DNA of 37,395 nt from a virus (IMGVR_UViG_3300045988_031779:1-37395), one strand, 5' to 3'; positions 1,994 to 34,600 are shown, counted from the stretch's first letter. The notes: generated from the letters alone by a model not told the origin. Numbers and translations are program-made.

Positions 1994-2069
1994 ATCTTGC
2001 TTTCAGGTGATCAAGCGTTAAACGCAATCAACCAAATACGGTTGATTTTAATATTTCTTCGCGTTTATC

Positions 2070-2086
2070 ATTACCTTTGCGGTAAA
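2070..2086. promoter_or_regulatory. Operator-like palindrome site 3: ATTACC-tttgc-GGTAAA, with candidate promoter just upstream
   Basis: One mismatch to the palindrome; TTGATT (2040..2045) and TTATCA (2065..2070) form a plausible -35/-10 immediately upstream, reading rightward. Confidence 0.4.
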
Positions 2087-2198
2087 TTTACATCGCACTC
2101 CTCTTGTGCCATAGTAATCGGGCACTGGCAAAATCCAGTGCCGGGATTGGCGTCCCGGGTTACTAAGTGGCGCATACCACGCCAGACGTGGTTTTTTT
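2087..2198 (+). ncRNA. Candidate structured leader or small RNA upstream of the Bro-N antirepressor, ending in an intrinsic terminator
   Basis: Stem-loops at 2121..2142 (GGCACTGG-caaaat-CCAGTGCC) and 2141..2158 (CCGGGA-ttggcg-TCCCGG), then terminator 2177..2198. No convincing ORF; track ORF 1997..2308 lacks a ribosome-binding site and crosses the terminator. Confidence 0.3.
2177..2198 (+). terminator. Intrinsic terminator (CCACG-ccaga-CGTGG followed by 7 T)
   Basis: 5-bp GC-rich stem followed by TTTTTTT on the plus strand, about 155 bp upstream of the Bro-N antirepressor start. Confidence 0.5.
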
Positions 2199-2354
2199 AT
2201 GCGTTAAGCACAGCTATATCCGAATTATGGTGGGCTGGGCAGGGGTCCGAAAGGACGCCGGTACCACTTAGGCCGGTACGCCAACCTTGTCCAGTTCACC
2301 ACCAGTAATTGGCGTTGCGGTGGTGATTAAAATCACTAAGTGGAGATAACCACC

Positions 2355-3065
2355 ATGGCTAATGCTCAAACTTCCATCTTCAAATTTGAATCTGTTAACC
2401 CTATCCGTTCCATCATTATCGATGGCCAACCATGGTTTGTAGCCCAAGACGTTTGTAGTGCGCTGCGTATCCAAAACGTCACCCAAGCACTTGAAAAACT
2501 GGATGATGATGAAAGGTCTATGTTCAACATAGGGCATGAACATCGTGCAATTTTTGACAGCCGAGTAAAAGAGATCAACATCATCTCCGAGTCAGGCCTC
2601 TACACACTGATCCTCCGCTGCCGCGACGCAGTGACACCAGGCACTATCCCCTACCGCTTTCGTAAATGGGTTACAGGTGAGGTTCTTCCTCAGATCCGCC
2701 GCACCGGAAGCTACATTAAAAACTCGCTCCCGCAGGAAGAACGCATAAAGATGGTTGCCGACCAGGTAGCCAACGCCACAGCATCAGCAGTGATGCAGGC
2801 AATGAAGATAGAGAACAAAACCTACAGCGCCCCACTGAAGCCCGGCTACCGCAGCCTGATTCATTCGCCGTCTGGTGTTCTCGGCCTGACGGAGCACTCA
2901 CTGCTGATGAATCTGCTGAACCAGTTACAGGACGACGGGCACGACGTATCGGGCGCGGCGGCGGAGCTGACCACCATGTTCTGCTACATCGTCGGTGTGA
3001 GCAAATGCCTGCGTGATATCCAGACCCACGCGGAGTACATCAACGACAAAGCAGGGTTCTTCTGA
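2355..3065 (+). CDS. Bro-N domain antirepressor with Ant/KilA-C-type C-terminal domain, 236 aa
   Basis: ATG at 2355 with GGAG 9 nt upstream (track ORF begins at GTG 2340 in the same frame). N-terminus IFKFESVNPIRSIIIDGQPWFVAQDVCSALRIQN matches the Bro-N signature; C-terminal domain is paralogous to 949..1206. Confidence 0.7.
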   Translation: MANAQTSIFKFESVNPIRSIIIDGQPWFVAQDVCSALRIQNVTQALEKLDDDERSMFNIGHEHRAIFDSRVKEINIISESGLYTLILRCRDAVTPGTIPYRFRKWVTGEVLPQIRRTGSYIKNSLPQEERIKMVADQVANATASAVMQAMKIENKTYSAPLKPGYRSLIHSPSGVLGLTEHSLLMNLLNQLQDDGHDVSGAAAELTTMFCYIVGVSKCLRDIQTHAEYINDKAGFF

Positions 3066-3136: not shown

Positions 3137-3153
3137 ATTACCCTAAAGGTAAA
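3137..3153. promoter_or_regulatory. Operator-like palindrome site 4: ATTACC-ctaaa-GGTAAA
   Basis: 26-42 nt upstream of the ATG at 3179. Confidence 0.45.
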
Positions 3154-4855: not shown

Positions 4856-5740
4856 TTAAAAACAAGGCCGCGAAAGCGGCCTGTTTGATAACTGTGCAGT
4901 TTTCGCTGATCGATTTTCAGCTCTAAATTCAAGAACCGTTTCAATATTTCTTTCCTTCAGCATATCAATAACATTTTTATTCATTTGACTATCACTGGTT
5001 AATAACTGGTAAACGTCGCTTCTCTCTTTATCAGAGTTTTCTTTAACAGCTGCTTTGCATGCCAAATGCTTATTGAAATTTTCTACATCGCTAGTACAGG
5101 AATTTACGGCTGCTGATGAAATATCAGACGCTGAAGAAACACCATCATCCAAACGTTTTATAGCATTTTCTATACATGAGTTAAGGGAATAAACGACAAC
5201 TGAGCGATACCCTTCAGACGCACACCATTCTAAATTTCTTGAAGGATCGAGTGGTTTTACTTCGCTGGATTGAATTAACTTGTCAAAAACTGACTTATAT
5301 TCAATCTGTTTTTTATCTATAGCCCATACTTCAGTAGCTGATTTATAATTCCCCGTATGCCTATTAACATCAAATCCATGTTTTATAAGCAAATCTGCCC
5401 ATGAAAGATTTATTGATTCATTGTTATGAGGCCATTTTCCTGTCAGAACCGCCCCCATAGACCCCATATATCCGCCATATGATGGTATAGCACCATGGCT
5501 CAGTAACTTCTCAGCAACCACAGGGCAATTAATTACATAAGAGGCGTAAAGCCCATTCCATAAAGCCCCTCTATAGTAATCGCCACGATTAGGTTCTTTT
5601 AAGTCGATAGCCTTTGATAATTGTTCACACGTTTTGCATGCATCAAAGTTATCCTTATTGCATTGCAATGAACTGGCAGCTGTAGGATTTACAGAGACTA
5701 TTGAAAGCACTATGCCAAAAAACAAATTTATTTTTTTCAT
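4856..5740 (-). CDS. Secreted protein with Sec-type signal peptide, AT-rich; weak ankyrin-repeat-like motifs, 294 aa
   Basis: ATG at 5740, 1 nt after the stop of the 1129-aa virion protein gene. N-terminus MKKINLFFGIVLSIVSVNPTAASS is signal-peptide-like; ADLLIKHGFDVN and AEKLLSHGA resemble ankyrin repeat ends (weak). Confidence 0.55.
   Translation of the reverse strand: MKKINLFFGIVLSIVSVNPTAASSLQCNKDNFDACKTCEQLSKAIDLKEPNRGDYYRGALWNGLYASYVINCPVVAEKLLSHGAIPSYGGYMGSMGAVLTGKWPHNNESINLSWADLLIKHGFDVNRHTGNYKSATEVWAIDKKQIEYKSVFDKLIQSSEVKPLDPSRNLEWCASEGYRSVVVYSLNSCIENAIKRLDDGVSSASDISSAAVNSCTSDVENFNKHLACKAAVKENSDKERSDVYQLLTSDSQMNKNVIDMLKERNIETVLEFRAENRSAKTAQLSNRPLSRPCF
4866..4883. terminator. Bidirectional intrinsic terminator candidate (AGGCCGC-gaaa-GCGGCCT)
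   Basis: 7-bp GC stem with GAAA loop, flanked by AAAAACA upstream and GTTTGAT downstream, at the convergence of the plus-strand module and the minus-strand late operon; overlaps the last codons of 4856..5740. Confidence 0.5.
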
Positions 5741-5741
5741 C

Positions 5742-8700
5742 CTATTTCATCTGCTCTTCAACTTTATTTAGTAATGGTGATATCGCCCACAGGTTCTGAA
5801 AAGGTAGCATTTTACGGACCGCGTGGGTTTGCTGGCTGTCAAATTCTCCGTTAAGTACACCATTCGCAACCGTCGCGGCATCACCGCCAAGATCAAAGGT
5901 AGGACCAAGTAAAGCACCAATAGCATTACGACTCTGAAACCTTGATACCGGAGGCGCACCAAACATCGCGCCAAGACCAAACCTACCACCGCTTATGTTC
6001 TCAACGGTATTCAGCGGCTCAGAGAGCCAGCCAAGCATTCCGCCCCGGTCGATCCCCTCTTTCACAAGGTTATTCCAGCTGTAGTCAATATCGCGACCGC
6101 TTAACTTCTGTTTCATCATATAGACCATTGAGCCAAGCGCAATCGTGCCAAGCGCACCAAGATAGAATGCAGCATCGCCCTGCTGGATACCAGATACCAG
6201 CACCCTGTTATGCTGTGCGAAGATAAACGTTTTGAACTGCGTGATCATCTTCCAGCCTTCTTTACTAAAAAACAGCGGTGTATCACCTACGCCAGGCGTT
6301 ACAATCACTGAGTCTACATCTTTCAGCACTGCAGACTGGAAAATCTCTCTAGCGAAACGGTCATCCCACAGATGACTATGCCCGGTTAACAGCCCGTCCA
6401 TATCCTCTCCGTGCTTCCCGAATTGCTCCCCGATTCGACGCAGAACATCTTCATTGATGCCGACCTGTGCCATCTTCCGCATTTCACTTTTGGAGAGCGT
6501 GCCACCAGCAGAAACTTGGCGAGCCGCGTCAAGTATCCTCGACTGCACTATCATCCCAGACCATGATTTAAGTGCGCTGTTCCACTGATTCATCAGCGTC
6601 CAGTTACCGAATTTCTGCGTCATCCAGTTCAGACCTCGCTCAGCGGCGCTTCTCCGGCTATAGGGGTCAGTAAGATCCGCTATAGCCTTTGTACGCGTAG
6701 ACAGGACATAATCAAGCCCAACGGCCATTTCTCGCAAATCCCTGGTTGCAATTTTCACTGAGTCCATATTTTTAAGCATGCTTACCATTGGTCCGAGAGA
6801 TTTTCTCAGGCCATGCTGCATCATCGGTCGCATCAGATCAGTTGCAGCGGAGACAGTCATTCCACCAAGCAAACGGAGGAAGTTAATATTCCTAGCAACT
6901 CGCCCGGCACGAACAAAGAAACTGCGTGGATCTTGAGGTGCACCGTAAGTACCAAGCAGTCGATCACGCATAGCCGTAATATCCCTAATATCAGCCTCCC
7001 GTTGCTTCTCAAGAACTGCACGTCGTTTAGGTGTTTTAGCCTCTTTTATTAGCCGGGTATATTCCTCACTAACCTGACGGATTTGCTCCCCCATATCTTT
7101 ACGGCCAAACTGCGCAGTCAGCTCAATTTCTGGTGCCACCTGCCGGAGATAACTTTCCATGATGTAGTTAACATCTGATTCAAGAAAATCTTCTATACGC
7201 TCATCAGGAATAAGCAGCGTTCTGCTTTTAGTGAAACCAGCCCGACCAACGAGTCTCTCTGGGATAATATCGGCTGGTACAAGCCCGGAAGGTGCGCCTA
7301 TTATTTTATTCACGATCTCGTCAGCAGCGTCCTCTGCTTCCTCTCGGGATAGAGGCTCCATCTGCTTCAGTGCTCGTTCGCGGCTTGCATTCAGCCTTGT
7401 GGTTGAATTTGCCCGTTTTTGCAGTCGGCGAAGCTCAGAACGATATTTCCGTGGATTATCCAGCAACTCCATATGGCGCTGATAGACAGGAAGCTCACTC
7501 TTTGCCTGCGCTATATCATCAAGGCGTGTTTTAAGGTCAGAGCTTTCTTTCATCATTCTTGCCTGAAGTTTTTCTGATGAAGTCTCGGCCAACTCTTTTT
7601 CTATTCTTGTAAGACGCGCCTGTGTGTCAGTCTCCTGAGATATAAGCTTATTTCGTTTATCCAGTTCTTCCATGAGTAGAATTTTTTTACCAGACCATTT
7701 CTCCGCTTCAGCGATTTCACTAGCGAGAGCATCAGCGCGCGGTGCCGATTCCTCTGCAGTTTTTAGCAATGAATTTATCCTTTCAATTCGCTGACCTGCC
7801 TTGTCAGCACCTTTGGCACTAATCCCTTGTATCCAGTTGGCAATTCGCCCTCTGAATTCAGTGCGGTCGGAAAGTATCTTATCGAACTTATAAATGCGGG
7901 GAAGATAACTTTTCGCCGTCACGACATCGATATCCTCAGGAAGGATCCCCAGTTCCTGCATACGGGCTTTTGTGATCTCGAAAATGGGGCGGATTCTGGC
8001 GGCTGCTTGTGAAACCTCAGGAATATCACTCTGATCACCACGGCGCATGGCCATGCCAACAGCTTCATTGAAATCAATAAAGTTCATCCTCTTCACGCCG
8101 CGGGCGCTAACAGATTTGCTGTACTGCTGATAAGCATCACGAGTGGCTTCCATCTGCTTATAAAGCATGGCGTCGTATTGCTTAATCTTAGTCTCGACTG
8201 CCGTAAACGTAGCCAACCCCTCATCATTTTTGGCGAAGAAATAGTTATTTTCGGCAAGCTGCTGGTTAATCTGACGGGAGACAAGAGATGGTGATTGCGC
8301 CAAGCGGCCAGCAGGAGTGACACTCAACGTTTTGTTAGCAAGTCCAAGTCCAGCGAGCTGTTCCTGATCGAGTGTGGTATTGAAAACCTGAGCTGCACCA
8401 ATGCTTTGAGGAGAATCCATACCTCGCAAATGATTACCTACTGAGTTAACCACTGCCTCGCGCGCGCTAGGTCCAGCAAGTAGCTGTGCACCAGCACCAA
8501 GGATCCCACCAACGAGAGCATCAACAACAACGTTCGATACGCTCTCCATCGGTGAGCGAGCTTCCTGAGTGGCCTGTAATGCGGCTTCTGATACTCCCCC
8601 ACCAGCAGCATTCGCCAGGGCAAAACGCCCTGCCGTCTCAGCAATACTTCCTCCACGCGCTACCGCCCCTACAGGGATGAACATTGCAGCCACATTAACC

Positions 8701-20845: not shown

Positions 20846-20883
20846 TTGACATTTAACGCACAAATTATTACCTTTCAGGTAAC
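20846..20883 (+). promoter_or_regulatory. Rightward promoter candidate (TTGACA) overlapped by operator-like site 5 (ATTACC-tttca-GGTAAC, 20867..20883)
   Basis: Consensus -35 hexamer at 20846..20851; the palindrome sits where the -10 and transcript start would be; faces the tRNA and moron ORF. Confidence 0.4.
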
Positions 20884-21204: not shown

Positions 21205-21281
21205 GTGGCATTAGCTCAGCTGGACAGAGCAACCGCTTTCTAAGCGGTTGGTCGCAGGTTCGAATCCTGCATGCCACGCCA
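21205..21281 (+). tRNA. tRNA-Arg (anticodon UCU)
   Basis: 77-nt cloverleaf folded by hand: 7-bp acceptor stem GTGGCAT/ATGCCAC, D arm GCTC/GAGC, anticodon stem ACCGC/GCGGT with loop TTTCTAA (anticodon TCT), T arm GCAGG-TTCGAAT-CCTGC, discriminator G, encoded CCA. Resembles enterobacterial argU-type tRNAs. Confidence 0.85.
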
Positions 21282-23468: not shown

Positions 23469-24061
23469 TGATTGCCATCCTGACGTTCTTTCAGTCTCTT
23501 CCTGGCTGCCGCTATGCGATCAGCAATTGTCACATTCACATTAACATCCAGGCGTTCTTTGAATGCGTTGACGTCGACGTGCTTACCAATCAGTTCGAGG
23601 TTCTTCACCTTGTCAGGCCATTTAATTTTTTTGAGGATTGTCTCTATCGAATCCTCGTTCATGTTCATGATGGTCGATGACAGATCAAAGCCACTAAGCG
23701 TAGTGCGCCAGATTTTCGGCCACTCGCGGATTGGCTTAAGGCTCCCATCGTCGTTGAGGATGTCGATCACGTCCATCTGGTCGATCTCCACCAGGCGCAT
23801 GAGAACGTAATCAGCACTGACGCGCATTCGTTTGTTGCGCTCTTCCATCAGCTCGGCAATCCGTTTTTGAATGCGTTCATCGCGCATCATGAGACTGGCT
23901 TTAACTGCCGCTGTATTTGGGGAGAATCCTGCGTTAATCGCTGCCTGAGTCTGGTTTTCAGGCGTTTTGATGTATGACTGGCAATAAGCCTCCTGCATTG
24001 CTGTTAGTGGCTTAAATTGCGTTGATTTGCGTTTATAGGTTTTAGGTTCAGCAGGCATCAT
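23465..24061 (-). CDS. Terminase small subunit, about 198 aa
   Basis: Start preferred at the ATGATG at 24061; the track start at 24139 adds an N-terminal extension (TITTTVTITTVV) that is the translation of a direct DNA repeat and reads through a terminator. Motif PLTAMQEAYCQSYIKTPENQTQAAINAGFS resembles small-terminase N-terminal DNA-binding domains. Confidence 0.6.
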   Translation of the reverse strand: MMPAEPKTYKRKSTQFKPLTAMQEAYCQSYIKTPENQTQAAINAGFSPNTAAVKASLMMRDERIQKRIAELMEERNKRMRVSADYVLMRLVEIDQMDVIDILNDDGSLKPIREWPKIWRTTLSGFDLSSTIMNMNEDSIETILKKIKWPDKVKNLELIGKHVDVNAFKERLDVNVNVTIADRIAAARKRLKERQDGNQ

Positions 24062-24077
24062 AACCACCGTGGTAATA

Positions 24078-24094
24078 GTTACCGTTGTGGTAAT
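24078..24094. promoter_or_regulatory. Operator-like palindrome site 6: GTTACC-gttgt-GGTAAT, embedded in direct repeats GTGGTAATAGT
   Basis: 17-33 nt upstream of the small terminase start; direct repeats GTGGTAATAGT at 24069..24079 and 24087..24097. Confidence 0.4.
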
Positions 24095-29186: not shown

Positions 29187-29203
29187 TTTACCCCTTAGGT
29201 AAT
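29187..29203. promoter_or_regulatory. Operator-like palindrome site 7: TTTACC-cctta-GGTAAT
   Basis: 4-20 nt upstream of the start codon at 29184. Confidence 0.45.
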
Positions 29204-29248
29204 TAAAAACCACATAAGACACGAAATCAATAGATTTTAGAATATTTT

Positions 29249-29265
29249 ATTACCCCTAAGGTAAT
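29249..29265. promoter_or_regulatory. Operator-like palindrome site 8: ATTACC-cctaa-GGTAAT
   Basis: Perfect palindrome about 45 bp from site 7, in the gap between the P-like gene and the DUF1064-like gene. Confidence 0.5.
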
Positions 29266-31219: not shown

Positions 31220-31236
31220 ATTACCTTTGAGGTACG
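31220..31236. promoter_or_regulatory. Operator-like palindrome site 9: ATTACC-tttga-GGTACG
   Basis: One mismatched half-site; in the gap between the cro-like gene end and the zinc-ribbon gene. Confidence 0.35.
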
Positions 31237-31290
31237 AATAGATATGAAAAGACCGCCGGATGGCGGTCTACAGAGGGTTGTGGCTGGATA

Positions 31291-31521
31291 TCATGAGTAG
31301 AAGAAGTATGCCAATTCTGCTTTTGAGCGCAGCCATTGTCTTGTTTTACAGGCTTTAAAAAGCCCATTCATCAATACCTTACCTGGCATTTTGCGCTTAC
31401 CTGTTAAGTGAGTCTGGATATAGTGACTCGTCGTTCCGGCTTCCTGTGCGAAGGCTTCACGCTCATCCGGAGTAAGTGCAAGCCAGTGCTTTTTGAAATC
31501 GAAATGTCCGTTATCGCTCAT
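31291..31521 (-). CDS. Cro/CII-like small helix-turn-helix regulator, 76 aa
   Basis: Divergent from the repressor gene across the operator cluster; HTH-like segment EREAFAQEAGTTSHYIQTHLTGKR. Confidence 0.5.
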   Translation of the reverse strand: MSDNGHFDFKKHWLALTPDEREAFAQEAGTTSHYIQTHLTGKRKMPGKVLMNGLFKACKTRQWLRSKAELAYFFYS

Positions 31522-31556
31522 AGCTATTGCCTGATATTTATTTCAGATAATAAATA

Positions 31557-31621
31557 TTCACCCATAAGGTAACAAAAATCAAGGATAGTTACCTATGAGG
31601 TGCATTTACCTGTTGGGTAAT
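31557..31621. promoter_or_regulatory. Cluster of three operator-like sites in the repressor/cro divergent region
   Basis: TTCACC-cataa-GGTAAC (31557..31573), GTTACC-tatga-GGTGCA (31588..31604, weakest), TTTACC-tgttg-GGTAAT (31605..31621). Confidence 0.55.
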
Positions 31622-31675: not shown

Positions 31676-32260
31676 ATGAAAAGTATCCAGGACGTCCGCA
31701 GGCAAAATCTCAACGACTTGATCGACCGTGAATTCAATGGTGTTCAGACGCGGATGGCAGAAAAACTTGGAACTCAGGCAAATCTGGTAAACCGCTGGGC
31801 TCTTGGCAAGAAGGTTATCGGCGACCAGGTTGCACGAAAAATTGAAGCTGCCGCCAATAAACCCCGTAACTGGCTTGATATCGATCGCTCGCTTTCTCAG
31901 GAAGGTTTTCAGCCTGTCGGCCCAAGCGACATTGGTCAGCTGGCGGCTCACAACCTGGAACGCTGGATGAGCGAAAGCCGCGACCTTTCAACGCAGGGAA
32001 AACTTCACCGCGCATCCGGCGTCGCCCAGGTGACAATCAGTCGCCTGTTAAACAATGAGGTCAGCGTTTCCATTTCCACCCTGGAGAATGTTGCATCCGC
32101 ATTCGGGCGTCACGGCTATGAATTACTGATTCACCCGCACGACCCTGCGACCATCAACTATGACCGCTCGCGCTACGCATTGTTACCCGAAACCGAGAAA
32201 GCAAAGATCGAAAGTTACATTGAATTTGTCATCAACCAGAACGAAAAAAACAAACAATAA
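31676..32260 (+). CDS. Prophage repressor, tandem helix-turn-helix type, no recognisable LexA-like peptidase domain, 194 aa
   Basis: Two HTH-like segments (VQTRMAEKLGTQANLVNRW and ASGVAQVTISRLLNNE); no Ala-Gly cleavage site or Ser/Lys dyad region seen; divergent from the cro-like gene; followed by a strong terminator. Confidence 0.6.
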   Translation: MKSIQDVRRQNLNDLIDREFNGVQTRMAEKLGTQANLVNRWALGKKVIGDQVARKIEAAANKPRNWLDIDRSLSQEGFQPVGPSDIGQLAAHNLERWMSESRDLSTQGKLHRASGVAQVTISRLLNNEVSVSISTLENVASAFGRHGYELLIHPHDPATINYDRSRYALLPETEKAKIESYIEFVINQNEKNKQ

Positions 32261-32316: not shown

Positions 32317-32333
32317 ATTACCTAATGGGTAAT
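32317..32333. promoter_or_regulatory. Operator-like palindrome site 13: ATTACC-taatg-GGTAAT
   Basis: Perfect palindrome between the repressor terminator and the rightward early promoter. Confidence 0.5.
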
Positions 32334-32351
32334 TTTTTTAACTCATATCTA

Positions 32352-32395
32352 TTGACATCAAACCAAATACGCATAATTATTACCTCAACGGTAAC
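32352..32395 (+). promoter_or_regulatory. Rightward early promoter candidate (TTGACA, 17 bp, AATTAT) overlapped by operator-like site 14 (ATTACC-tcaac-GGTAAC, 32379..32395)
   Basis: Consensus -35 at 32352..32357, -10-like AATTAT at 32375..32380, palindrome overlapping the -10 and start region. Confidence 0.5.
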
Positions 32396-33686: not shown

Positions 33687-34600
33687 GCAACGAAATTGCA
33701 ATCACCAATGATGTGTTGGCTATTCGGGGAATCGATGAAGTTACATGGAGCGCTCTGAAAAACAGTATTTACCCTGGGGCAAAAGATGAATCGGTAATGA
33801 TGGCAGTCGATTACTGCCGGGCGCGTCAACTCGATCCTCTTCTTAAGCCGGTACACCTGGTACCAATGAGTGTTAAAGACTCGAAGAGTGGAAAGAATGA
33901 ATGGCGCGACGTGGTCATGCCTGGCATTGGACTTTATCGCATTCAGGCCTACCGTTCCGGCGATTACGCAGGCGCTAATGAACCTGAGTTCGGTCCAGAT
34001 GTAACACAAACGCTTTCAGGCGTGGAGGTTACCTTCCCTCAGTGGTGTAAGTACACCGTCAGCAAGCGAATGGCAAGCGGGGAAATCGTAGAGTTTAGCG
34101 CCAAAGAATACTGGATTGAGAACTATGCAACTGGGGGGCGTGACACATCGGCACCAAATGCCATGTGGAAAAAGCGCCCTTATGCGCAGTTGGCAAAATG
34201 CGCAGAGGCACAGGCATTACGTAAAGCATGGCCGGAGATTGGTCAACAAGCCACAGCTGAGGAAATGGAAGGTAAATATATCGACTCACCTGACATTATT
34301 GAACGTGACGTAACTCCAAGAAGTCAGGCAAAGCACGGCACAGCATCCAGCATGAACAGTCTGATCAACGCTAAAACAGTGAAAAAGCCTGATGAGCAAA
34401 CGCGTAAAGCGGATAGCCGTGATCCAGAAGAAATGCTGATGGCCTTTACCAGCGCAGCGATGAATTACAGCACTGTCTCCGAACTGGATAAGGCTTACAA
34501 ATACATTGCACAAAAACTTTCAGATGATGACGAACTGCTGGCAAAAGCCACCGACGTTTACAGCGTTCGTCGGGAAGAATTAAACGAAACATCTATGTAA
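33683..34600 (+). CDS. Single-strand annealing protein of the Bet(Red-beta)/RecT superfamily, about 305 aa
   Basis: By-eye alignment with lambda Bet: DPLLKPVHLVP vs NPWTKEIYAFP and WKKRPYAQLAKCAEAQALRKAWPEIG vs WQSHPKRMLRHKAMIQCARLAFGFAG. ATG at 33683 overlaps the upstream stop. Confidence 0.7.
   Translation: MSNEIAITNDVLAIRGIDEVTWSALKNSIYPGAKDESVMMAVDYCRARQLDPLLKPVHLVPMSVKDSKSGKNEWRDVVMPGIGLYRIQAYRSGDYAGANEPEFGPDVTQTLSGVEVTFPQWCKYTVSKRMASGEIVEFSAKEYWIENYATGGRDTSAPNAMWKKRPYAQLAKCAEAQALRKAWPEIGQQATAEEMEGKYIDSPDIIERDVTPRSQAKHGTASSMNSLINAKTVKKPDEQTRKADSRDPEEMLMAFTSAAMNYSTVSELDKAYKYIAQKLSDDDELLAKATDVYSVRREELNETSM

Follow-up and report, generated by a model that had tools for sequence, protein, structure and literature searches.

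The leader of the antirepressor gene ant in a prophage of Escherichia coli is, as far as its sequence can tell, an instance, not annotated before, of an RNA switch known from phages, in which the antisense RNA c4 of phage P1 is combined with an IsrK-like decoy RNA. The prophage, a Uetakevirus (epsilon15/phiV10-like), is the window of this study, that is, the whole stretch of 37,395 nt that was analysed, and the leader lies at 2040-2354, between a leftward gene (1229-1957) and the rightward Bro-N gene, whose ATG at 2355 is also the start given in RefSeq for the BRO-N gene. The module very probably exerts antirepressor control of the P1 immI type, with a c4 RNA and a decoy RNA that carries the sites a1 and b1. 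RNA-based control reminiscent of P1 c4 had been put forward in the original prediction, and it is borne out by matches to isrK and C4 above the Rfam cut-offs and by the covariation of the pairing sites; for these two reasons the likeness to P1 c4 is one of homology, and not only of analogy.

The ant region is 98% identical to that of phage HEMP4 and 89-93% identical to those of TL-2011b, ZX5 and phiV10, and 457 of the 5426 complete E. coli genomes contain the same 361 bases. The BRO-N gene is the sole annotation in the twelve listed RefSeq records of the E. coli module. In the phiV10 record, the terminator and an 'anti-immunity protein' are annotated and an RNA is absent, and in several phage records dubious protein-coding calls cover the c4 region. 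A literature search for c4 in epsilon15/phiV10-type phages led to the ZX5 paper, which deals with the repressor and antirepressor proteins alone, without reference to an RNA. The practical value of the present assignment lies in annotation, the c4 mechanism having been known from P1 and P7 for decades and both RNAs being Rfam families already.

An Rfam scan of the entire window returned three matches that pass the curated cut-offs: a tRNA (21205-21278), isrK (RF01394) at 2122-2198, with 67.7 bits for a cut-off of 50 and model positions 1-77 of 77, and the C4 antisense RNA (RF01695) at 2223-2306, with 66 bits for a cut-off of 45 and model positions 1-87 of 87. In a sensitive scan, c4-a1b1 (RF03163) reached 44.1 bits at 2109-2161, just below its cut-off of 46.7. 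The order isrK then C4, with a gap within about 25 nt, is found in 15/15 relatives scanned, which comprise Uetakeviruses, Stx phages, and phages of Klebsiella, Yersinia and Aggregatibacter. The architecture agrees with both assignments. The isrK segment displays the two adjacent hairpins (loops CAAAAUC and UUGGCG), the spacer, the intrinsic terminator and the promoter-proximal start of its family, whereas the C4 segment has the long terminal stem around two hairpins and a single-stranded junction, in a predicted fold that has the same shape as P1 c4. Its recognition sequences, a' and b', are complementary to the downstream same-strand sites a2 and b2, with b2 on the ribosome-binding site; a second copy of both targets (a1 and b1) lies upstream, and recognition sequences and targets change jointly between phages. 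An icd-like leader ORF, as found in P1 immI, is absent from the c4-ant interval; this ORF is a trait of P1, not of the RNA family, and several relatives likewise do without it. The positions of all features are given in Table 1.

Table 1. Features of the ant control module and of the associated genes in the prophage (positions in the window; a point denotes a site without strand).
Feature	Position	Strand	Basis or remark
Upstream promoter candidate, TTGATT, 18-nt spacer, TATCAT	2042-2071	+	Consensus scan, 9/12 matches; activity presumed
Operator-like palindrome, TTACC-TTTGC-GGTAA	2071-2085	.	Presumed site of the prophage repressor; binding putative
Second promoter candidate, TTTACA (2087-2092), 17-nt spacer, TG-extended CATAGT (2110-2115)	2087-2115	+	Predicted start near 2122
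IsrK-like leader RNA with a1/b1 decoy sites, ending at the intrinsic terminator	2122-2198	+	Rfam isrK
Hairpin 1, loop CAAAAUC	2121-2142	+	-13.6 kcal/mol, z = -4.8
Hairpin 2, presenting target a1 (TTGGCGT, 2147-2153)	2141-2158	+	-10.6 kcal/mol, z = -2.8
Target b1, CTAAGTGG	2163-2170	+	Perfect complement of c4 loop b'; covaries in relatives
Intrinsic terminator, 6-bp stem ACCACG/CGTGGT (2176-2192) and seven T to 2198	2176-2198	+	Fold and terminator scan
c4 antisense RNA gene	2223-2306	+	Rfam C4; predicted mature RNA about 2229-2303, ends putative
b' recognition loop, CCACUUAG	2264-2271	+	Loop sequence of the second c4 hairpin; partner of b1 and b2
a' recognition segment, ACGCCAA	2278-2284	+	Single-stranded junction 3' of c4 hairpin 2
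Hairpin CACCACC...GGTGGTG, presenting target a2 (TTGGCGT, 2309-2315)	2297-2325	+	-14.1 kcal/mol, z = -3.1
Target b2, CTAAGTGG (2336-2343), over the ant Shine-Dalgarno GGAG (2342-2345)	2336-2345	+	Read from the sequence
ant, Bro-N antirepressor gene, regulated target	2355-3065	+	Pfam Bro-N, 9.6e-20; PHROG 130 'anti-repressor Ant', 3e-56
Prophage repressor gene	31676-32260	+	Pfam HTH_3, 194 aa; presumed operator ligand and Ant target

The entire leader (2077-2370) folds at -120 kcal/mol, compared with -93 for shuffled sequences (z = -5.5). The four hairpins, the terminator, and the promoter and operator elements originally described were all recovered in folds and scans, within 1-2 bases, and an ORF check from the promoter to ATG 2355 agreed that no credible ORF precedes ant. 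The ORFs at 1997-2308 and 2167-2271, considered as coding candidates, run across the promoter or the terminator and were discarded. The same applies to the frame that begins at the AUG of AAUUAUGGUGGG (2227), which is not conserved across loci: in the window it has 14 codons and stops at 2269-2271, in the b' loop and 84 nt upstream of ant, and over 16 loci such frames have 8, 14, 15, 17, 32-36, 45 or more codons and encode unrelated peptides. Two elements had escaped notice in the original prediction, namely the c4 gene with its 17-pair stem and a second repeat, CTAAGTGG, which forms b1 and b2.

Two loop sequences had been singled out as recurring in the leader, and they fared differently. ATTGGCG is indeed repeated beyond chance and is functional, but as target site a, complementary to a', and not as a loop motif; its copies are at 2146-2152 and 2308-2314, the latter one base from the 2307-2313 first reported. 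AAAATC is not a meaningful repeat, as there are 27 copies on this strand, the second copy in the leader is replaced in relatives, and c4 contains no complement of it. Its first copy was correctly placed at 2130-2135, whereas the second is found at 2329-2334 instead of 2327-2332. The hairpin 1 loop in which the first copy lies, CAAAAUC, shows conservation both across relatives and in the Rfam models, and it too is without a complement in c4.

The terminator, which is included in the isrK model, has a weak stem (-7.6 kcal/mol) and is probably leaky. In the homologous Gifsy-1 locus, the short IsrK stops at the equivalent terminator and a fraction of the transcripts passes it and continues into orf45-anrP (PMC4825925). 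The short terminated RNA is probably a 77-nt species, 2122-2198, from the second promoter; the upstream promoter, under control of the operator, may also yield a transcript of ~120 nt. A short RNA, terminated and/or processed, had been anticipated, and the idea holds; the processed RNA, however, would be the c4 RNA of ~2229-2303, which had not been flagged, and none of the hairpins then listed.

The 17-pair stem of c4 (2228-2301), which surrounds two hairpins, is the largest structure of the region (-43.6 kcal/mol, z = -5.0). The ends of the mature RNA were placed by alignment with the annotated 77-nt c4 of P1 (48343-48419), and the processing context is visible here in the 5' sequence AAUUAU/GGUGGG, common to the window, P1 and Gifsy-1, and in a 3' ACCACCA tail. 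A promoter belonging to c4 itself was sought in 2199-2228 and rejected, with no match in the scan and a stretch that is not conserved in P1 or Gifsy-1. As c4 is located downstream of the terminator, its supply would depend on read-through. Perfect complementarity extends over 7 nt between a' and each of a1 and a2, and over 8 nt between b' and each of b1 and b2; none of 20000 shuffles of the c4 core produced a pair of 7-mer blocks with complements in both flanks. Nested cofolding of c4 plus target showed no net gain, a result that is uninformative, as loop-loop contacts are beyond the reach of nested folding; for this reason RNAcofold and duplexfold yielded no usable value for c4 and its targets. 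The hairpin that presents a2 forms in 16/16 loci; of the 11 pairs in its consensus, 6 show compensatory changes. The 3' strand of the c4 stem doubles as the 5' arm of this hairpin and, because this strand is shared, the hairpin and the c4 stem are mutually exclusive in one molecule. The Shine-Dalgarno of ant overlapped by b2 lies 9 nt upstream of the ATG.

For the comparison across related loci we gathered 79 loci from viral contigs, 11 phage loci, P1 and Gifsy-1, and pairing was analysed in 16 loci from related and distant phages, P1 included. Folding and covariance analysis, proposed at the outset as a check, supports the assignment: over these 16 loci the hairpin that presents a2 is kept, and a' and b' covary with their targets. 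At least five variants of a' (ACGCCAA, CTGTCAA, GTGCAAA, AGACCAA and GTCTCAA) and at least ten of b' occur; a1 and a2 perfectly match a' in 16/16 loci, and b1 and b2 perfectly match b' in most copies. In several loci, a perfect match of at least 6 nt is missing at a b site, or the match is short. This is the case of b1 in Stx2c, L074 and Tyrion, of b2 in the Klebsiella phage ST11-OXA245phi3.2 and in Aaphi23, and of VT2-Sakai, where the b1 match is absent and the b2 match extends over 6 nt only; in an additional locus, the reverse-strand module of L051, a1 is unmatched. Every b2 with a match coincides with the Shine-Dalgarno, the AUG or the first few codons. The Uetakevirus prophages by themselves display three a types (ACGCCAA, AGACCAA and GTGCAAA) and three b types (CCACUUAG, CCUUUUAG, which is b' of the phiV10 allele, and CCUUUGUAG), and a1, a2, b1 and b2 match the a' and b' types of their own phage, one of them via a G-U pair. 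This joint change is the pattern to be expected of a functional RNA-RNA recognition code. Recognition sequences that differ between phages and yet match their own targets are the basis of P1/P7 heteroimmunity, and the covariation described here is the same phenomenon. An identical repressor is found together with different c4 recognition alleles in separate prophages, a combination by which polylysogenic strains would have distinct anti-immunity specificities.

Regarding the control of transcription, matches to the promoter consensus are not above chance on their own (5 found versus 4.6 expected). The palindrome TTACC-N5-GGTAA, in turn, is present in 14 copies in the window versus 0.64 expected, a number attained in 0/100 shuffles, and its copies are located on both sides of the repressor gene; relatives retain the arms of the operator palindrome, with its 5-bp spacer free to vary. 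The upstream promoter candidate is the positional counterpart of the repressor-controlled P51a of P1, and in relatives a second promoter-like version replaces it, the operator after it being kept. The second promoter candidate is conserved throughout the Uetakevirus relatives and stops 6 nt before the isrK match. In position it corresponds to P51b of P1 and to the Gifsy-1 isrK promoter, and each of these three stops 5-7 nt short of hairpin 1. The repressor of the window is 100% identical to those of phiV10 and ZX5. In ZX5, overexpression of the repressor (ORF21) blocks lytic growth, and that of the Bro-N protein (ORF4) favours the lytic cycle (PMC9782041).

The present analysis shows membership of the RNA families, the structures, the complementarities and their covariation. 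All these elements can be arranged in a model in which transcription, processing, repression and decoy action would follow the homologous systems. The repressor bound at the operator would limit transcription from one or both of the tandem promoters. The 77-nt transcript ending at the weak terminator (2198) would yield the IsrK-like RNA with a1 and b1, whereas the read-through transcript would contain c4, which, as in P1, would be excised from the ant transcript as an RNA of ~77 nt with its 5' end made by RNase P. Pairing of b' and a' with b2 and a2 of the ant leader would then block ribosome binding and turn ant off, because b2 overlaps the Shine-Dalgarno; such repression in vivo is expected by analogy with P1 and Gifsy-1, and would keep ant off both in the lysogen and in a superinfecting phage of the same type. 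On the short RNA, a1 and b1 would serve as a decoy titrating c4, so that a burst of promoter transcription would turn ant on, and the Ant made under excess decoy would inactivate the repressor. Decoy-type activation by IsrK has been shown in Gifsy-1 (PMC4825925). The accumulation of the RNA, its binding to Hfq and the activation in trans of antirepressor translation, known for Gifsy-1 only, may be expected here by analogy. Mutating a1 in cis increased the translation of anrP in Gifsy-1 instead of decreasing it (PMC4825925), an effect that a pure decoy model does not predict.

The original prediction also offered an attenuator as an explanation. According to this alternative, the regulated step would be the terminator at 2176-2198, and not occlusion of the ribosome-binding site, and either c4 bound to a1/b1 would promote termination, as in the case of the P4 CI RNA at seqA, or some other factor would modulate it. 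The terminator does stand inside the leader, 6 nt past b1; the authors of the IsrK study raise attenuation for STnc1160 and the IsrK terminator, and a Gifsy-1 transcriptional fusion also rises 8-fold with IsrK (PMC4825925). However, the translational effect of IsrK supplied in trans on anrP, 139-fold, is far above the transcriptional one, and constitutive STnc1160 left the effect of IsrK unreduced (PMC4825925). Our folds of the leader show no alternative structure competing with the terminator stem, and pure termination leaves unexplained the position of b2, covarying with b', on the translation start region wherever it is matched. For these last two reasons attenuation is a weak alternative and unlikely to be the main control. 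Plain attenuation is thus not the best model, and in the studied homologue the terminator creates the decoy sRNA.

It is very unlikely that the 2122-2198 RNA is chiefly a trans-acting, Hfq-dependent sRNA directed at host mRNAs and only secondarily linked to ant. Rfam describes isrK as an Hfq-binding RNA, and the conserved hairpin 1 loop, which is A-rich, lacks a partner within the module; nevertheless, the other two segments that are conserved and single-stranded show covariation with the adjacent c4, the IsrK-like RNA is always directly upstream of c4, and a and b sites occur together nowhere else in the window. Even less credible is a coupling of the orf45 or icd type, in which the ORF from AUG 2227 would be translated, its ribosomes would open the ant start and the RNAs would regulate this ORF: the AUG in AAUUAUGGUGGG is conserved, P1 uses icd for such coupling, and stop or start mutations of orf45 in Gifsy-1 reduce anrP activation (PMC4825925), but the frame stops inside the b' loop and varies between loci in length and sequence, so that a leader-peptide mechanism cannot operate here, and b2 is on the Shine-Dalgarno of ant itself.

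The preferred reading, c4 repression of ant relieved by a decoy, might be extended by a switch in cis. The conserved segments CACCACC (2297-2303), GGUGGUG (2319-2325) and ACCACC (2349-2354, just before the AUG) may be mutually exclusive in their pairing, and folding or excision of c4 may free GGUGGUG to close a hairpin that covers b2 together with the Shine-Dalgarno and start codon, thus shutting ant in cis. When the 3' strand of the c4 stem is removed, GGUGGUG is predicted to pair with ACCACC in the window and in ~10/16 loci; this closure shows no clean compensatory evidence among the 16 loci, and both segments resemble Shine-Dalgarno-related sequence. The cis switch is offered as a hypothesis only. 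A broader proposal joins such a switch at c4 maturation with the identification of Salmonella IsrK as the decoy arm of a c4 system, 'orf45' being no gene, and with reassortment of the a and b elements. Taken as a whole, this proposal is tentative and rather doubtful. The link between IsrK and c4 is absent from the original IsrK paper and from a 2025 review, where the two RNAs are listed separately. If the proposal were true, a and b would reassort as independent modules, giving rise to distinct anti-immunity types among E. coli Uetakevirus prophages with the same repressor.

Several phage systems control antirepressors or other genes by comparable means. The sar RNA of P22 immI, which had originally been named for comparison, likewise lowers antirepressor translation, but it is unrelated, and is a true cis-antisense RNA from an opposite-strand transcript. 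In the window, sar (RF00262) gave no match at the gathering threshold, nor did it in 1900-2500 up to E = 10, so that the search provides no sign of a sar-type transcript over the ant start; the relative TL-2011b has a sar match elsewhere. At the anti-immunity locus immA of the phage-plasmid N15, as reported by Ravin et al. in 1999, a CA RNA processed from the leader holds the icd-antA-antB-antC operon off, and is said to do so through premature transcription termination. With its several ant genes and the reported termination, this locus differs from the window. The CI RNA of satellite phage P4 is a processed RNA flanked, within a single transcript, by two copies of its target (PMC4825925), as c4 is here, with seqA and seqC as the duplicated targets. 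Unlike c4, it leads to termination of the transcription of replication genes, not to a block of antirepressor translation, and no match to a sequence family of this RNA was seen in the window.

The closest relatives are the isrK-orf45-anrP locus of the Salmonella prophage Gifsy-1 and immI of P1 and P7. In Gifsy-1, as in the window, a homologous IsrK is followed by a C4-like RNA and then by the antirepressor gene, a short terminated RNA exists beside a read-through transcript, and b2 is on the Shine-Dalgarno of the antirepressor gene (anrP). The STnc1160 RNA, of ~80 nt, is processed from the read-through transcript (PMC4825925). The a sequence, TTGGCGT/ACGCCAA, is shared with the window, whereas b' is different (CGGUGAU versus CCACUUAG), and the coupling frame proposed for Gifsy-1 has 45 codons, in contrast to the 14 codons of the window frame, which cannot reach ant. 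The published model is framed in terms of alternative structures of the mRNA, with no mention of c4, and the compensatory mutant pairs of Hershko-Shalev et al. are G28-C162 and G31-C159 (PMC4825925). When the published numbering is mapped onto the Gifsy-1 sequence, both pairs fall exactly on a1:a' pairs, and the AUG with which 'orf45' begins is that of AAUUAUGGUGGG, at the 5' end of the homologue of c4. These correspondences suggest that the IsrK locus of Gifsy-1 and the c4 system of P1 belong to one family.

In P1, the record lists the C1 operator Oc4, P51a, P51b, a1, b1, the 77-nt c4, a2, b2 and icd; a (TTGACAG) pairs with the c4 junction CUGUCAA, and b (GTTAGTG) with the c4 loop CACUAAC. 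The c4 RNA of P1/P7 immI is homologous to that of the window (Rfam C4), and the order of the elements is the same, from operator, two promoters, hairpin 1, a1 and b1, through a terminator-like hairpin, to c4, a2 and b2, with a2 three to five nt past c4 and b2 on a Shine-Dalgarno in both. In contrast to P1 immI, which has icd, the window is devoid of an ORF of this type, and b2 lies on the Shine-Dalgarno of ant itself; its Ant is a Bro-N protein and not Ant1/2. The operator is placed between the two promoters and is palindromic (TTACC-N5-GGTAA), with an HTH_3 protein as its presumed repressor, whereas the C1 operator of P1 is asymmetric and lies on the -35 of the upstream promoter, and the element as a whole is an integrating podovirus instead of a plasmid prophage. 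These differences from the P1 and Gifsy-1 models leave the defining features of the RNA family untouched.

In the Salmonella prophage Gifsy-1, the published study of IsrK (PMC4825925) describes an RNA locus that can be read in terms of c4, the antisense RNA that lies upstream of ant in the window. When mapped on the Gifsy-1 locus, the compensatory mutants of that study (G28-C162 and G31-C159) coincide with pairs between the decoy segment a1 and its c4 recognition segment a', 'orf45' starts where the c4 homologue has its 5' end, and the processed RNA STnc1160 corresponds to c4 itself. The link between IsrK and c4 was made neither in the original paper nor in a 2025 review.

The repressor of the window prophage (gene at 31676-32260) is exactly that of phages phiV10 and ZX5, and despite this common repressor, the c4 b' allele (2223-2345 compared) and the C-terminal part of Ant differ from theirs; the RNA/ant module therefore appears to have been exchanged independently of the repressor. 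Variant modules are also found among relatives. One prophage contig (IMG/VR 3300045988_096329) carries two isrK-C4-ant modules in opposite orientations (loci L051 and L078), and in the second of them a' (AGACCAA) matches the leader target a2, not a1 (TTGGCGT); this second module looks like a recombinant whose decoy is mismatched. Locus L063 and two identical loci carry, at the position equivalent to 2121-2142 of the window, the exact reverse complement of the hairpin found there, with the loop ATTTTG versus CAAAAT, an inversion of a palindromic hairpin.

Other RNA families match in the relatives as well. The Aggregatibacter phage Aaphi23 has a 99-bit match to Rfam AaHKsRNA82 in place of isrK, directly 5' of its C4; this named small RNA probably constitutes the a1/b1 arm of the c4 system in that phage. 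TL-2011b has a match to the P22-type sar RNA (44.8 bits, cut-off 43) about 3 kb downstream of its c4-ant module, and the Rfam scan found no equivalent of it in the window. In public phage records, protein-coding annotations at four loci cross the isrK and/or C4 matches; these genes are probably miscalled or have their start set too early.

Coordinates of operator-like sites, RNA loci and genes
Sequence	Feature	Positions	Strand
Window	TTACC-N5-GGTAA sites	858-872, 1978-1992, 2071-2085, 3138-3152, 20868-20882	
Window	TTACC-N5-GGTAA sites, further stretches	24061-24093, 29188-29264, 31221-31620, 32318-32394	
Window	242-aa ORF	1229-1957	minus
Window	tRNA-Arg gene	21205-21281	
Gifsy-1 (L093)	IsrK/c4 locus	34076-34316	minus
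TL-2011b (L002)	sar match	5723-5790	
Aaphi23 (L092)	AaHKsRNA82 match	548-628	
PhiR47_1 (L090)	'Rha protein', crosses isrK and/or C4 match	252-1400	
VT2-Sakai (L087)	orf34, crosses isrK and/or C4 match	763-936	
L086	annotated gene, crosses isrK and/or C4 match	839-1126	
L088	annotated gene, crosses isrK and/or C4 match	645-894	

Elsewhere in the window, the prophage carries a tRNA-Arg gene (anticodon UCU). An ORF of 242 aa runs divergently from the ant promoter and has its own TTACC-N5-GGTAA site at 1978-1992; the C-terminal part of its product is rich in cysteine, and the product matches Stc1 weakly, below the threshold. The palindrome occurs 14 times in the window, against 0.64 copies expected, and its copies are intergenic, spread across the prophage and clustered on either side of the repressor gene. 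They look like a scattered set of putative operators for a single repressor, an arrangement also known from P1.
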